Positions 19,304 to 39,518 of a DNA stretch of 64,000 nucleotides are shown in pieces. Position numbers and translations under genes: made by a program. The notes beneath the pieces were generated by a model. It was given only the letters and a program-made list of their open reading frames with translations. It was not told where the DNA came from and did not search any database. Source of the stretch: Patescibacteria group bacterium (lineage in GTDB: Bacteria > Patescibacteriota > Saccharimonadia > CAILAD01 > JADZBC01); the NCBI GenBank assembly GCA_052034495.1, contig JBPOIL010000012.1, forward strand, positions 13,644 through 77,643, in the 5' to 3' direction. Each line of letters begins with the position of its first letter. The first letter of the stretch is position 1.

Positions 19304-19636
19304 ATGCAAACCGAAGTGGCAAGAGAAGAGCAGCACCGTCCCCGCCTCGGAAGCAGCTACGACGCTTCCGCGGTCCCCGTGGGGCAGGTGATGCAGGTCA
19401 ACACCCGCAACTCCGCCTACTACTTCGTCTTCACCGATGAGCGGCGCATCAACCGCACCGACATCACCGGGGTCTCCGTGACCACGACGAACAAGGGCAT
19501 CGCGGTGGGTGCGCCCGCCAGCGTGCGGGTCGACCGGGTGATCCGTCGCGGGCAGTCGCTCCGCTTCGGCGCCGGTCGTGGGACCACGACTTCCGACGTC
19601 GTCTCGGTCTACGTGGCGGGTCGCCAGGTCGTCTGA
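19304..19636 (+). CDS. hypothetical small protein (110 aa) encoded in a high-GC island; start taken at ATG 19304 (ORF track begins at TTG 19280)
   Basis: AGGAGG RBS 10 nt upstream of the ATG; own promoter and terminator. GC content visibly far above the genome background; a frame-by-frame GC3 count has not been done. Confidence 0.5.
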   Translation: MQTEVAREEQHRPRLGSSYDASAVPVGQVMQVNTRNSAYYFVFTDERRINRTDITGVSVTTTNKGIAVGAPASVRVDRVIRRGQSLRFGAGRGTTTSDVVSVYVAGRQVV

Positions 19637-19702
19637 CCTGGTCCACCACAACTGCAGTCTTGAATGAGATCCAAGACAACATGCAGAGACCACCTTGATC
19701 TC

Positions 19703-31475: not shown

Positions 31476-31510
31476 CGTATTGAGACGAGAGTATACTGGA
31501 AGAGTTATGA

Positions 31511-31534
31511 GGCCCTAGCGCATGCGCTAGGGCC
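31511..31534. repeat. perfect 24-nt palindrome GGCCCTAGCGCATGCGCTAGGGCC at the edge of the tdk island
   Basis: Read directly from the sequence; candidate terminator for the minus-strand island transcript, or a protein-binding site. Confidence 0.5.
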
Positions 31535-31557
31535 TCGGGTGAGGGTTGGTCTGAACT

Positions 31558-31776
31558 TCAGTCCGAAGGGTCTTCCGGGGGAAGGCGCTTGTCCCAGGGG
31601 ATCTCGCGAGGGCCACCCTGCAGGATGGTCGGAGCTTCTTCTTCTCCTCCTTCGCTGAGCAGGTGCCTTCCCGGAAGAGGGCTCCCGGTCGGCACAGTGG
31701 GCTCCAGCCCCGTGAATCCGGCCTGGAGGCGCGCACGAAGATCGGCGCCATCTCTCATTGCTTGGTCGTCAGCCAT
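31558..31776 (-). CDS. hypothetical acidic, Pro/Gly-rich small protein (72 aa) downstream of tdk in the high-GC island
   Basis: Same strand as tdk with a 77-nt gap; high GC; weak RBS; could be non-coding. Confidence 0.25.
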   Translation of the reverse strand: MADDQAMRDGADLRARLQAGFTGLEPTVPTGSPLPGRHLLSEGGEEEAPTILQGGPREIPWDKRLPPEDPSD

Positions 31777-31853
31777 CCTATTTGGCCTTGCCTTTCTGTT
31801 CGGTGATCAAGCCTTAGCCATATTAAACGAGCTTCCGCCCGAAGACAAGTGCA

Positions 31854-32399
31854 TTATGCGCGAACAAAGCATGTGCGACAGCGTGCCTCATAGCTATAGG
31901 TACCGTCCTCTGGCAGGATGGACGGAAGCCCTCCTGTGACTACCTCGCCGCCGTTGAGGACTTGGCTAAACCGTGCCTCATAGCTTCTGCACACGTCACA
32001 AACTGCGACAAGGCATTGCACACTTGTCGGCCCAAGTTCCATCAGGGCAACGGTGCCTTCGGTCAGTATGCCGCGATAGTCCATATCGAGCCCGACCGCG
32101 TACACAGTCGTCCCCCTGGATAGCAGTGTATCCAGTGAGCGCAGATCGTCTGGGCTGAACATATGCACTTCGTCTATACCGACTACGTCGTAGTCGGCAA
32201 GCCAGTCGACGTCGATTCCGTCGACCTTTGTCGTCTTGATGCTGGCTCCGGCACGAGAGCTCACTCGGTCTTCCCGGTCGTGCAGGTTGGGCTGCAGGAC
32301 TACCCACTTCAAATCGCTGTGCACGAGTGGCGAGAAGATCTTTATGAGCTCGAGCGATTTACCTGACTTCATGGGTCCCACGGTTAGGTGTAGTGGCAT
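31854..32399 (-). CDS. tdk: thymidine kinase, encoded in a high-GC island on the opposite strand between rpsG and fusA
   Basis: P-loop GPMKSGKS, VVGIDEVHMF, C-terminal zinc-ribbon cysteines (CDVC...CRTC). Start placed at the second ATG (AAGGAG RBS 9 nt upstream); the track ORF extends to 32408. Confidence 0.8.
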   Translation of the reverse strand: MPLHLTVGPMKSGKSLELIKIFSPLVHSDLKWVVLQPNLHDREDRVSSRAGASIKTTKVDGIDVDWLADYDVVGIDEVHMFSPDDLRSLDTLLSRGTTVYAVGLDMDYRGILTEGTVALMELGPTSVQCLVAVCDVCRSYEARFSQVLNGGEVVTGGLPSILPEDGTYSYEARCRTCFVRA

Positions 32400-34767: not shown

Positions 34768-34803
34768 AAAGAGACCTTGTCAGATTGACAAGGTCTCTTT
34801 GTT
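34768..34803 (+). terminator. Rho-independent terminator after fusA
   Basis: AAAGAGACCTTGTCAgatTGACAAGGTCTCTTTgtt. Confidence 0.75.
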
Positions 34804-34959
34804 AGGTTATGATACTGAGCGAGATCGACCAGGTCTTCTAGCAGACAGCCTAGTAGTAGGTAGTAGTCGAACGAGTCGGGAATGTTGAGCCCGACAAAGG
34901 CGATGAAAGCAGACGTGCTGCAGCACATCATCTGTTCTACTGAAAGCATTCACCGTTCC

Positions 34960-35345
34960 GCGCCGCCGCGTGAACTCAACCTCTGGCACGCTTCAGGTAA
35001 GCGCCGAGGTCGATAAAGTGGAGGAACTAGACTGGTTTGCAAAACCACATATCCTGCGAAAGCAGAGGCTCGGAGGCATTCGGGCGGTTCGTATCTTCGG
35101 GGTCAGGAATCTTCTCAAGACCCGTAAGGAACCAGATTGTGGGTGGCGTGCATAATGATTTCTATGCGCGCGCGTCGCACCTCGCGTTAACGCCTCACGA
35201 GCGTTGCGAGGTTTTCGGGAGACGCCGGTTGCCGTCAGGCAGCCACCAAGGTGTGTGGATTCTAGGTACCTCTGCCTGAGGAGGCCCGAGCCTAGGCTCC
35301 ACACACGCTCTGCCCCTGGCTTCCGCCAGGGGCGCTCTGCTTTAA
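34960..35345. other. GC-rich structured non-coding island in the unusually long fusA-tuf spacer
   Basis: No credible ORF. Long imperfect hairpin GGTGTGTGGA...CTAGG...CCTAG...TCCACACAC (about 35254-35308), followed by GCCCCTGGcttccgCCAGGGGC. Confidence 0.3.
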
Positions 35346-37608: not shown

Positions 37609-37638
37609 CCGCCTGACCCCGATGAAGGGGTCAGGCGG
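37609..37638. terminator. terminator hairpin overlapping the stop of the minus-strand ORF
   Basis: CCGCCTGACCCCgatgaaGGGGTCAGGCGG. Confidence 0.55.
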
Positions 37639-37924
37639 AGAATGCATCTTCAGGTACGAGACCCAATCGTGCAGGGGTGGAGAACGGCGGCTCCCAGTAG
37701 TGGTCATCGAAGCGTTCACGGATTGCAGCGATGACGACTTCTACCTGGTGGTCGGTCATCGCGACCTCTGCCACCTCGTAGGTGAGACCTGCCAGGTGTT
37801 GTACCCGTGCGCCTCTCTGGCCAAGTGAGACCAGCTCTTGCTGTAGGAAGTTGATGACGAGCTGATGATCATCTTCTGGAATCATCACCTGGAACTGCCG
37901 CATGACATCTTGTCGTACGTGCAT
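37631..37924 (-). CDS. hypothetical protein (97 aa; start at the ATG with AGGAGG RBS; track ORF extends to 37993)
   Basis: AGGAGG 9 nt upstream of ATG CAC GTA...; no recognisable motif. Confidence 0.4.
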   Translation of the reverse strand: MHVRQDVMRQFQVMIPEDDHQLVINFLQQELVSLGQRGARVQHLAGLTYEVAEVAMTDHQVEVVIAAIRERFDDHYWEPPFSTPARLGLVPEDAFSA

Positions 37925-38093
37925 TGCACCGAACCTCCTTTCGAAGTTTGTGGCTCGGTGAGCTACAGACTGTATCTGCAATTCACCGGCCACAATCCCT
38001 AAAAGTTTGCAAAGTGCTTAAGGCTATGCCTTAATGTGCACAAATCATACTACAGATAGGTTGACACGTCAATAAGAATGTTGAAAAAAAGAC

Positions 38094-38122
38094 TAGACAA
38101 ACAATGCTAGCTGTGTTACTAT
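38094..38122 (+). promoter_or_regulatory. sigma70-type promoter driving the large structured RNA
   Basis: TAGACA, 17-nt spacer, TACTAT, in an AT-rich stretch. Confidence 0.4.
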
Positions 38123-38128
38123 GTGTAT

Positions 38129-38677
38129 CTAAGTTTGGTTTACGCCAAATTGCACCTTATATTTGGACTTCGGTCCATACAATCAGCTCTTGATACATTG
38201 AGCGTTGATTGTATGGACCTGACACCTTAGGTAAAGTCCATTGAATTGAAATCCGATCCATTTGAGGCTACGGCCACAAGAAAGGGTAGTAGCTTGCACG
38301 GAAGAGCGCACGTTTGCTGGTTCGCCAGTGTGACGTCACCGTTTCTCCTAGCACGCTACAATGCCCTGTAGGGTCGGATGATACCGGAAGCAACGGCCCG
38401 AGGGCCACCGCTTCCTGGTGTCGCCAGAGAATTTACGCCACGCGGCTTGCCGTAGGTATTGTTCTCTGAGCTTCGCGCCTTCTGCTTCGGCAGAAGGTCA
38501 TACGCTGAGGGTCCCGCCCCCTCAGTCGCGCAGGGTGGGTTCCGCCACCTGCCCTTGCGCACGACGCGCCCCGGGATCCGCCGCCTGGGACGCGCAGGTC
38601 GGCGGGGTGGCCTCCGGGCCACCCCGCCGCACCCACCACGAGACCTTGAACTTTGTTCAGGGTCTTCTTTCATTTTT
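38129..38677 (+). ncRNA. candidate large structured ncRNA (~550 nt) of unknown class, promoter to intrinsic terminator; its 3' third is extremely GC-rich
   Basis: No credible ORF. Series of perfect hairpins: GGTCCATACAATCA/TGATTGTATGGACC (38172-38219); CCTTCTGC-UUCG-GCAGAAGG tetraloop (38478-38497); CTGAGGG/CCCTCAG (38505-38525); GGCGGGGTGGCC-tccg-GGCCACCCCGCC. Terminator GAGACC...GGTCTTC plus T-run at 38640-38677. Motifs AAAGTCC (38233) after the first hairpin and GGAAGAGCGCAC (38300) are reminiscent of RNase P RNA, but the spacing does not fit. Confidence 0.4.
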
Positions 38678-38727
38678 GGATTAACTTTCTCTTCGACTCC
38701 CCATAGTTTTTATGCTTAAATAGAGTA

Positions 38728-38991
38728 ATGAAGAATAAGGGCGGCAAAAGGTATTACGAGTCTGACTTCGCTTTTTTGGTAAAGGCGGGCCTTTATCTCA
38801 TCCTCGGACTTACATGGATATCGATTAACGGACATAGAGTGATCCCGATAGGTGTAATCCTGGGCTTTATATTCTCTAAGGTTGATGTGCTAAGGATTGA
38901 TCGCAAGATAGAATATGCTCTACTCGTCGTTGGGGCGCTCTTAGGGCTGGTTTTTACGGGCATTGGCTTAACGATCTCCATTAGTCTATAG
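38728..38991 (+). CDS. small hydrophobic membrane protein (87 aa, two predicted TM helices)
   Basis: Hydrophobic stretches LYLILGLTWISI and VGALLGLVFTGIGLTISI. Confidence 0.4.
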   Translation: MKNKGGKRYYESDFAFLVKAGLYLILGLTWISINGHRVIPIGVILGFIFSKVDVLRIDRKIEYALLVVGALLGLVFTGIGLTISISL

Positions 38992-38993
38992 TC

Positions 38994-39320
38994 ATGGAGT
39001 TTACGCCTACACCCGCATTTTGGGTCAGTTTGCTGCCGGTGCCATTTTTGACCTACCTTAATATTAAAGTCGGCTTCCTTTTACTCGAGCTCCGCAGGCG
39101 CAACCGTGTCAAACGTATAAAATCAAGCAAGCTCTACAACCAGGGGAGGGCACTAGGTATGATATCTGCTTGCTTTGCCTTGTTGCCTGCAATCTTGGAG
39201 TGGCGTATATTCGTTCAGAACCCATGGTGGGCAATATCCTACCTCATAGGTGGTATTTTGGGCGTGCTTGCGCTCAGAATGGTACAAAGGGGCCTCAAGG
39301 CCGAGCTGCGGCGTAAGTAG
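38994..39320 (+). CDS. small hydrophobic membrane protein (108 aa, 3 predicted TM helices), 2 nt after the preceding ORF
   Basis: Hydrophobic segments; basic loop RRRNRVKRIKSSK. Confidence 0.4.
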   Translation: MEFTPTPAFWVSLLPVPFLTYLNIKVGFLLLELRRRNRVKRIKSSKLYNQGRALGMISACFALLPAILEWRIFVQNPWWAISYLIGGILGVLALRMVQRGLKAELRRK

Positions 39321-39344: not shown

Positions 39345-39374
39345 TTGACACTCCTGTTGGTTATCTGGTACACT
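39345..39374 (+). promoter_or_regulatory. promoter for the rplC-led ribosomal operon, followed by a ~140-nt leader
   Basis: TTGACA, 18-nt spacer, TACACT. The leader contains the hairpin GTCCG...CGGAC and a T-run at ~39483-39490. Confidence 0.4.
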
Positions 39375-39518
39375 AACGCTTGGTCTAAAACATTCCTTTT
39401 CAGGCTTAACGGCTGGGAAGTGATTAGGTCCGCTCGGTACAGGGTAAAGCGCCCGGACGGAAACCCATCAACTTGCCAGGATTTGTTTTTCTAGAATAAT
39501 CACATTAAGGAATCACGC

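Follow-up and report, generated by a model that had tools for sequence, protein, structure and literature searches.

Does the gene-free stretch of about 0.6 kb between two small protein genes in the rpsJ-rplC spacer of a Saccharibacteria genome encode an RNA and, if so, of what kind? The locus lies in a window of 64,000 nucleotides (nt), the whole stretch of DNA that was analysed, from a Patescibacteria group bacterium (GenBank assembly GCA_052034495.1, contig JBPOIL010000012.1, positions 13,644 to 77,643); positions below are those of the window unless another contig is named. An earlier note on the same DNA had proposed an independently transcribed, structured non-coding RNA (ncRNA) of about 550 nt at this place. 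All the features that it listed were found at or within 1-3 nt of where it had put them, and synteny, conservation of promoter and terminator, and covariation in eight lineages strongly bear out the proposal, its transcription being predicted from sequence signals. As the best explanation overall, to which we assign a probability of roughly 0.6, positions 38129-38677 of the forward (+) strand are the gene of an undescribed, clade-restricted large structured ncRNA that would act in trans through a conserved linker and C-rich loops. Taken by parts, it is very probably a real structured RNA gene, and the RNA is likely, with somewhat less assurance, to be an independent trans-acting transcript. 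It forms a new family within a recognised kind of RNA, that of the large structured ncRNAs of bacteria, and is proposed here as the Saccharibacteria rpsJ-rplC spacer RNA.

The predicted transcript is framed by a promoter and an intrinsic terminator (Table 1), both of which had been recognised in the earlier note and were recovered by promoter and terminator scans. Because a TG dinucleotide is present at 38114-38115, the promoter is of the extended -10 type (TGtTACTAT, 38114-38122). Among the eight lineages, T(A/T)(G/T)ACA and TGnTAnnAT are kept in the promoter alignment and the other positions vary freely. The 5' end was placed 7-10 nt past the -10 box, where conservation starts (CUAAGUUUGG), and the 3' end in the U-tract of the terminator, which reads GAGACCTTGAAC-TTT-GTTCAGGGTCTT at 38640-38666 followed by CTTTCATTTTT. 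The relatives have a terminator at the same place with an unrelated hairpin sequence (GCCCCUC…GAGGGGC, GCCCUGAC…GUCAGGGC) and a retained U-tract. These signals point to a discrete transcript of about 550 nt, and of 574-709 nt in the relatives, where length was counted from the first base past the -10 box and up to, without including, the next gene's promoter.

Coding potential in this interval is low, as had been claimed. Open reading frames (ORFs) of 86-105 amino acids (aa) in the GC-rich part look like junk rich in Arg and Pro, no gene was called in the RNA gap of any related contig, and tblastx among the homologs gave no conserved frame, the short matches being spread evenly over all six frames. 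The GC-rich 3' part is likewise as described: the GC content is 0.75-0.78 at 38500-38650 versus 0.495 for the window.

Relatives were gathered by a search with the L3 protein, which gave a graded series of loci whose contigs were then compared. The nearest GTDB species representative is a Candidatus Saccharibacteria metagenome-assembled genome with 65% L3 identity, and the next matches are other genomes of the Patescibacteria, or Candidate Phyla Radiation (CPR). A gap free of genes, 800-940 nt long (in L091, where the two small genes were not called, 1665 nt), occurs at the same place, between a small minus-strand ORF and a conserved 87-aa gene, in six contigs (L089, L091, L093, L095, L182 and L184) whose L3 is 82-88% identical to that of the window, and near-identical strains carry it as well. 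Sources of the contigs include JGI 3300056999, 3300043411 and 3300056788 and runs such as SRR24011137 and SRR26425193. By nhmmer and alignment the gaps are homologous to the candidate RNA, which gives eight lineages in total, all within one narrow Saccharibacteria clade. Alignment is good over the promoter and over the first ~100 nt and the last ~110 nt; in the central ~240 nt identity falls below 50%, beyond reliable alignment. The same folding plan is found in every homolog despite this central divergence.

A covariance model of the 5' domain (R1), built on hairpin P1, the linker UUGYACCUUAUA and a P3 hairpin of 20-26 base pairs (bp), detected all eight lineages and four strain variants outside the seed, with 83-102 bits. 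R1 found no second copy in the 64-kb window and no match in 88 other CPR loci, and no sequence repeats tie the element to other sites in the window. The 80 GTDB loci collected through L3 comprised only distant genomes (identity of 65% or less), whose rpsJ-rplC spacers hold unrelated protein genes. Another 80 metagenome loci, collected through the 87-aa protein (identity of 68% or less), had short AT-rich gaps upstream of it and no covariance-model or nhmmer match. The sister clade (L098 and L100, L3 71-73% identical) is without the RNA, and its slot holds a gene for a 399-aa DEAD-box helicase. A tblastn search with this helicase against all the homologous gaps showed no relic in the RNA region of any lineage.

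The helices show compensatory change. Covariation was quantified for the 5' domain and the 3' hairpins, because the full-length MAFFT alignment is unreliable in the central ~240 nt, and used the eight related lineages. In the 5' domain 94.4% of the alignment cells form standard pairs, versus 24-47% if the 3' partners are slid along by 1-3 columns, and the covariation score is 0.397 versus 0.05-0.11 for the slid controls. Nine of the 29 pairs change on both sides. The domain holds 27 double-change cells versus 10.8 ± 2.6 in shuffles that ignore phylogeny, none of 500 of which reached 27. The RNAalifold picture agrees.

Individual helices show the same behaviour. P1 covaries at pair 10-21 (GC in five sequences, AU in two, GU in one) and at pair 12-19 (CG in four, UG in three, UA in one). 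P2 occurs as UGGACUU/AAGUCCA, UUUGGAC/GUCUAAA, UGAGCC(U)/(A)GGCUCA, AUGAGC/GCUCAU and GAGCCG/CGGCUU; for L089 the pairing scan ranked another 8-bp pairing first, and GGACUU/AAGUCC was identified by eye. The double changes of P3 include 54-110 (CG:4, UA:4), 57-107 (AU:3, GC:3, UA:2) and 60-104 (GC:5, CG:3), and in the terminal hairpin seven pairs change on both sides, for example 43-75 (CG:3, GC:3), 44-74 (GC:5, UA:2) and 51-67 (UA:3, CG:3, UG:1). Near-identical strains differ at 14 positions, mostly located in loops or re-forming stems: a U to C change at 38199 turns a G·U into a G-C pair, a cluster at 38314-38329 rebuilds a UUCG hairpin, and a variant at 38183 weakens one pair of P3.

The strand follows from the G·U pairs. 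All eight sequences have G·U at P1 pair 6-25, and P3 has a conserved G·U at pair 66-98; as these would be A·C on the opposite strand, the + strand is fixed. The covariance model agrees, with 83-102 bits on the + strand versus 23-35 on the minus (-) strand (99 versus 33 for the window copy).

The element is also more stable than shuffled sequence. Its minimum free energy (MFE) on the + strand is -281.6 kcal/mol versus -197.2 ± 6.4 for dinucleotide shuffles, a z-score of -13.1 that is overstated because shuffling mixes the AT-rich 5' end with the GC-rich 3' end; the - strand gives -255.2 kcal/mol (z = -7.95). Folded as separate segments, 38129-38300, 38301-38475 and 38476-38640 have z-scores of -5.3, -3.6 and -6.5, with none of 200 shuffles as stable in each case. 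Homologs gave -15.0 (L184) and -13.1 (L089), and a GC-regression scan of the whole window has the element and its immediate flanks among the flagged windows.

These results bear on the view that the locus has no RNA function and is GC-rich foreign or decayed DNA, such as the remnant of a helicase pseudogene, or a cluster of palindromes acting at the DNA level. The GC content of 0.75-0.78 in a genome of 0.495, the helicase at the same position in the sister clade and the other GC-rich patches in the window (19305-19637 and 34822-35345) would fit it. It is nonetheless highly improbable, since the helicase search is blank in every lineage, no frame is conserved, promoter and terminator are, and the compensatory helix changes and strand-specific G·U pairs largely refute it. 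An origin in mobile DNA finds no match either: blastn against a phage collection (50,697 records) and against plasmids gave nothing for the RNA, and its 5' signature is absent from IMG/VR.

Table 1. Predicted features of the spacer RNA locus and of the genes around it
Feature	Position	Strand	Description and basis
Promoter	38094-38122	+	-35 TAGACA 38094-38099, 17-nt spacer, -10 TACTAT 38117-38122; A-rich tract upstream; promoter scan
RNA	38129-38677	+	About 547 nt; fold z-scores, homologs in eight lineages, covariance-model score; both transcript ends inferred from sequence
P1, 8-bp hairpin AGUUUGGU-UUAC-GCCAAAUU	38132-38151	+	Covariation
Linker UUG(C/U)ACCUUAUA	38150-38161	+	Mostly single-stranded; shares its first two U with the 3' end of P1; alignments
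5' three-way junction	38164-38240	+	P2 (UGGACUU 38164-38170 / AAGUCCA 38234-38240) encloses P3 and a small hairpin, P4 (38224-38232)
P3, 21-bp hairpin	38172-38219	+	7 of 21 pairs change on both sides
Variable central domain	38241-38476	+	Long-range closing helix, irregular long hairpin, then two more hairpins; predicted from MFE folds
9-bp hairpin GCCUUCUGC-UUCG-GCAGAAGGU	38477-38498	+	Fold
Three consecutive C-rich-loop hairpins	38504-38594	+	Loops UCCCGCC (38504-38526), UCCGCC (38528-38560) and AUCCGCCG (38565-38594)
Terminal 16-bp GC hairpin GGUCGGCGGGGUGGCC-UCCG-GGCCACCCCGCCGCACC	38597-38633	+	Covaries
Intrinsic terminator	38640-38677	+	12-bp stem GAGACCUUGAAC/GUUCAGGGUCUU and U-rich tail; terminator scan
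ORF in rpsJ-rplC spacer, 101 aa	37152-37457	+	
Small ORF in rpsJ-rplC spacer	37631-37993	-	Start probably 37924
Small membrane-protein genes downstream of the RNA	38728-38991 and 38994-39320	+	87 aa and 108 aa
DEAD-box helicase gene in the RNA slot (sister clade)	L098 2266-3465; L100 2245-3444	-	

The architecture runs from a covarying 5' domain through a variable centre to a string of GC-rich hairpins. Between P1 and the three-way junction, the 12-nt linker (UUGCACCUUAUA) is the most conserved sequence of the RNA, invariant save for one C/U position. It has no consistent intramolecular partner across the homologs and no trans partner above chance in the 64-kb window, where its complement is not enriched. 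For P3 the earlier note had given a stem of 14 bp; the stem is real, and its length is 21 pairs. In the central domain the long hairpin bears a semi-conserved GGNAGAGCGCAC motif (38299-38310), and an analogous domain appears in the MFE folds of all homologs.

Further 3', the hairpin CCUUCUGC-UUCG-GCAGAAGG was found as described (38477-38498), and its positional equivalent in L093 is GCCGACCAG-UUCG-CUGGUUGGC. The CUGAGGG/CCCUCAG stem of the earlier note is that of 38504-38526, and its GGCGGGGUGGCC/GGCCACCCCGCC stem lies within the terminal hairpin, 38597-38633. The three C-rich-loop hairpins are copies of a 15-nt module, GGG(U/A)(U/C)CCGCCNCCUN, spaced 28 and 36 nt apart (direct-repeat family D1). 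Each homolog has two to four such hairpins with differing stem sequences and the loop consensus (A/U)UCCGCC(G).

An observation on the 5' domain concerns mutually exclusive pairings within 38165-38240 of the + strand. A hairpin with a cUUCGg tetraloop, GGAC-UUCG-GUCC (38165-38176), is in competition with P2 and P3, since GUCC is also the opening of P3, which GGAC closes. The four competing strands all change together in the relatives (GAGCC/GGCUC), so both folds remain possible, and the alternatives may represent either a switch or an intermediate of co-transcriptional folding.

Is this RNA a member of a family already known? The earlier note had pointed to ROOL, GOLLD, HEARO, OLE and an atypical RNase P. 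Rfam 15 gave no relevant match for the whole window at the gathering score, for 37950-38800 at E <= 10 or for the six homologous loci at E <= 1, and these resemblances therefore did not hold up. The RNase P models (RF00010/RF00011) matched neither the window, nor 37950-38800, nor the six homologous loci; the models of ROOL (RF03087), GOLLD (RF01998), OLE (RF01071) and HEARO (RF02033) matched neither the window copy nor the six diverged homologs. The earlier note had been unable to fit a tmRNA, and this agrees with the results: ARAGORN found only five tRNAs in the window and no tmRNA, and the tmRNA model (RF00023) had no match.

A highly divergent member of one of these families, or of 6S, SRP or the omega guide RNAs, is nevertheless conceivable from the size, which is similar to that of ROOL and OLE, and from AAAGUCC and GGAAGAGCGCAC in the window copy, which are like RNase P motifs. 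In RNase P the AAAGUCC of CR-I is universally conserved and forms P4 with a distal ACAGAA…GGCUUA segment. Here AAAGUCC is the 3' strand of P2 and is replaced, together with its partner UGGACUU, by GGCUCA, GCUCAU or GUCUAAA in relatives; as it co-changes in this way it is not a conserved catalytic-core motif, and the clue of the earlier note falls. HEARO or omega RNA is further disfavoured by the lack of an adjacent IscB, TnpB or transposase gene, and absence at this locus in sister lineages would be odd for an essential housekeeping RNA. With the blank Rfam and ARAGORN searches, membership of a known family has scarcely any probability.

The large ornate ncRNAs ROOL, GOLLD, OLE and HEARO, whose function was unknown at discovery, share with this RNA a length above 500 nt, extensive conserved secondary structure and a GC content well above the background. 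In contrast to them, the spacer RNA is confined to one Saccharibacteria sub-clade, a much narrower distribution, consists mostly of simple near-perfect hairpins that turn over between lineages, and has no association with phages, tRNAs, an OLE-associated protein or IscB. The word ornate in the earlier note needs qualification: the RNA is highly structured, and is less ornate than the classes cited, its hairpins being largely near-perfect and turning over in sequence and apparently in number. A phage or tRNA association of the ROOL/GOLLD type was sought without success: there is no similarity to phage records, nothing in IMG/VR, and the nearest tRNA is more than 17 kb off.

The RNA might still work as these classes do without belonging to them, as a homo-oligomeric particle or the scaffold of a large ribonucleoprotein (RNP). 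ROOL/GOLLD/OLE-type RNAs form RNA-only assemblies (PMC12286853), and the spacer RNA is in the right size class, has many helices and has conserved loops that could make loop-loop contacts, one of them overlapped by the 6-nt palindrome GGAUCC in five of eight lineages. We consider this very unlikely, as pairing is predicted for the GGG of GGAUCC, L089, L182 and L184 have lost the palindrome, few signs of conserved multi-way junctions or internal loops are seen beyond the 5' domain, and there is no phage or tRNA association.

The string of discrete hairpins in the 3' half, three of them from one module (28 and 36 nt spacing), also suggests a precursor that is cut into small RNAs, either RNase III products or an array of guide stem-loops like that of TIGR-Tas. 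TIGR stem-loop arrays of variable palindromes are known from CPR bacteria, with an adjacent Nop-domain Tas gene and tandem units containing two unpaired spacers of 8-12 nt and box C/D motifs (PMC12045711). The likeness is that an intergenic region of a CPR bacterium holds a series of palindromic stem-loops of variable sequence. The differences are larger, and a precursor of this kind is quite unlikely: the hairpins are orthologous and covary between lineages, without hypervariable spacers, and no tandem repeat is present that would indicate a tandem, CRISPR or TIGR array, the stems being near-perfect with loops of 4-8 nt and without the pair of unpaired 8-12-nt spacers. No Nop-domain Tas gene is found among the neighbours, nor any other large protein gene nearby besides those for ribosomal proteins and the ORFs of 87-120 aa. 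Box C/D-like motifs were not seen by eye in the RNA, no dedicated pattern search having been run.

Whether the RNA is a gene of its own or the leader of the genes that follow it was judged from the promoters downstream. As a cis-acting 5' leader or attenuator, transcribed from the 38094-38122 promoter and normally ending at 38640-38677, it would act by regulated read-through on the two membrane-protein genes (87 and 108 aa) and perhaps on the rplC operon. In every one of the eight lineages the RNA directly adjoins the 87-aa gene in the same orientation, its location is a ribosomal-protein cluster, a common setting for RNA leaders, and its mutually exclusive 5' pairings (GGAC-UUCG-GUCC versus P2/P3) could in principle switch. 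Between the RNA terminator and the ATG of the 87-aa gene, however, lies another promoter (-35 TTCGAC 38692-38697, 18 nt, TGcTTAAAT 38713-38721), which is conserved in the homologs. From the end of its -10 box to the ATG there are 7 nt, which suggests that the mRNA of the 87-aa membrane protein is leaderless. In the RNA-less sister clade (L098 3660-3692) TGCTATCAT stands 7 nt before the ATG of the 85-aa ortholog, the same arrangement with an equivalent extended -10 at the same distance.

Since the 87-aa gene and rplC have promoters of their own, the former even in relatives without the RNA, the RNA is more readily taken as a separate gene and a cis-acting leader is unlikely. It is also disfavoured by the conserved attenuator-like leader that rplC itself possesses, by the very stable 16-bp hairpin directly 5' of the terminator, by the absence of any riboswitch, T-box or ribosomal-protein leader model among the Rfam matches to the region and six homologs, and by the occurrence of the downstream genes throughout the Saccharibacteria without such an RNA upstream. 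No antiterminator alternative to the terminator stem was noticed, though no systematic search for one was made.

How might an independent, trans-acting RNA of this design work? Loop and linker sequences are conserved while the stems drift, and on this ground the C-rich loops and the linker are tentatively regarded as recognition surfaces, by analogy with better-known RNAs. Staphylococcus aureus RNAIII is about 514 nt long, with many hairpins and its own promoter and terminator, and RNAIII, RsaE/RoxS and the actinobacterial 6C RNA, regulatory RNAs of Gram-positive bacteria, use several C-rich apical loops on stable stems as recognition elements; in RNAs of the RNAIII or 6C type these loops base-pair with target mRNAs at G-rich or Shine-Dalgarno regions. 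The likeness is one of manner of working, not of membership, and lies in the predicted stand-alone transcript and the C-rich loops. The RNAIII (RF00503) and 6C (RF01066) models had no Rfam match to the RNA region or six homologs. The spacer RNA differs from this type in its loop, UCCGCC rather than UCCC/CCCC, which is not complementary to the canonical GGAGG Shine-Dalgarno sequence, and from RNAIII in having no embedded peptide ORF and in its CPR host. The sponge RNAs CsrB, RsmY and RsmZ, which sequester a protein through a GGA motif, offer a second comparison, with multiple copies of a short loop motif on hairpins of variable stem in a dedicated non-coding transcript; here the motif is UCCGCC instead of GGA, only two to four copies are present, and a 5' three-way junction and an invariant linker are added.

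In the mechanism that we propose, the working surfaces would be the sequence-constrained parts, namely the linker UUGCACCUUAUA beside the 5' three-way junction and the two to four apical C-rich loops. Loops and linker would bind multivalently to G-rich RNA segments (GG[C/U]GG[A/G]) or to a sequence-specific protein, and the remaining hairpin array would provide a nuclease-resistant scaffold for stability. A bolder interpretation makes the RNA the first known member of a new class of large structured ncRNAs (about 550-710 nt) in the Saccharibacteria, which are ultra-small epibionts. Such an RNA would have an elaborate task: it might trap RNAs or proteins multivalently, scaffold an RNP that assembles itself, or have taken over part of the role of the DEAD-box helicase whose gene fills this slot in sister lineages. 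This we hold to be rather doubtful.

Several points weigh against a trans-acting RNA of this kind. Its existence in cells and its transcript ends are deduced from sequence signals. The eight lineages belong to one narrow clade, which limits covariation statistics whose shuffles ignore phylogeny, and the structure of the central ~240 nt rests on single-sequence MFE folds because that part is not reliably alignable. A hairpin chain with turnover is less typical of intricate tertiary folds, and selection for stability alone could produce it. The recognition surfaces lack visible targets in the 64-kb window, which is too small for a target search: neither the linker complement nor GG[C/U]GG[A/G] is enriched at start sites (GG[CT]GG[AG] occurs near 4 crude start sites versus 1.7 expected, and three of the four belong to spurious ORFs), and WTCCGCC is not enriched across the window. 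One C-rich loop, moreover, has diverged: it reads AUCAUCGC(C) in two lineages, L089 and L182, whereas L184 has GUUCAUCCCG.

On the other side, genomes of CPR bacteria, including Saccharibacteria, are roughly 1 Mb or smaller and are thought to shed dispensable DNA; retention of a ~0.6-kb RNA gene, whose promoter looks strong, in the most conserved gene cluster of such a minimal genome therefore suggests a real selective benefit. Bacterial ncRNAs of more than about 500 nt with conserved structure are rare, and the classes described so far are, as far as is known, biochemically unusual or still puzzling. Our literature searches found no lineage-specific large structured RNA, and none such as this one, described for Saccharibacteria or for the Patescibacteria/CPR. 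The spacer RNA is a testable object, with a defined (predicted) transcript, a covariance model of its 5' domain and two candidate recognition surfaces, and the helicase-bearing sister lineages without the RNA are natural "knock-outs" for comparison. Its narrow distribution, eight lineages of one sub-clade, limits both statistical power and general reach.

The RNA is one of several components of an enlarged spacer. Gene order in the window is rpoC, rpsL, rpsG, tdk (minus strand), fusA, tuf, rpsJ, about 2.5 kb of lineage-specific DNA, and then rplC, rplD, rplW, rplB and the rest of the S10/spc ribosomal-protein cluster. The ORFs flanking the RNA region encode 87-120 aa without a significant Pfam match, and genes for ribosomal proteins and elongation factors lie farther out. 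The divergent small ORFs upstream are only 14-23% identical to one another among the lineages and are for this reason not a conserved protein partner of the RNA.

In ordinary bacteria rpsJ and rplC are roughly 20-150 nt apart. In CPR loci the spacer is enlarged and filled with unrelated protein genes. This junction, which most bacteria keep tight, is in CPR genomes a hotspot for insertions, with unrelated cargo that includes a small membrane protein, a protein of about 215 aa, and a 690-aa protein together with two others (L001 5186-6001; L004 1983-3034; L007 2154-6001). Upstream of the RNA, between the divergent promoters and at the predicted 5' end of the minus-strand mRNA, a perfect palindrome, TTAAGGC-TAT-GCCTTAA, was observed at 38018-38034. 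In relatives it becomes TAGGGC-GAT-GCCCTA, with both arms compensated, and it could be a 5' stem-loop of the mRNA or an operator.

The last component of the spacer is the promoter and leader of rplC. The predicted promoter is TTGACA-18-TACACT (39345-39374), and the leader region (39345-39518, + strand) contains a highly conserved stem, long and imperfect, CUGGGAAGUGAUUAGGUCCG…CGGAAACCCAUCUACUUGCCAG, whose tip varies in length; GAUUUGUUUUU comes after the stem. The leader resembles an attenuator and is reminiscent of the L4-controlled leaders of S10 operons. The leader had no Rfam match and a single-sequence fold z-score of +1.0, and it shows no covariation because its sequence is nearly invariant.

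Other intergenic regions of the window were also noted. The fusA-tuf gap (34786-35345, + strand) has the layout of another RNA gene: the fusA terminator is overlapped by a near-consensus promoter (TTGACA-17-TATGAT), after which come about 520 nt with no credible ORF (fold z-score -4.7), and a hairpin, GCCCCUGG-CUUCC-GCCAGGGGC (35308-35333), stands at the end, just before the tuf promoter. The gap had no Rfam match. In L089 the last hairpin is at the same position with a different sequence, and the tuf promoter and 5' untranslated region are nearly identical. The rpsG-tdk gap (31480-31860) is GC-rich as well, with a spurious-looking 116-aa ORF, and its fold is no better than shuffles (z-score -0.9), unlike that of the candidate RNA. 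A 110-aa ORF at 19305-19637 (+ strand) adjoins a tRNA-Leu gene and has a GC content of up to 0.73 in a genome of 49.5% GC; it is GC3-rich by eye and looks like a real gene, possibly one that was horizontally acquired.

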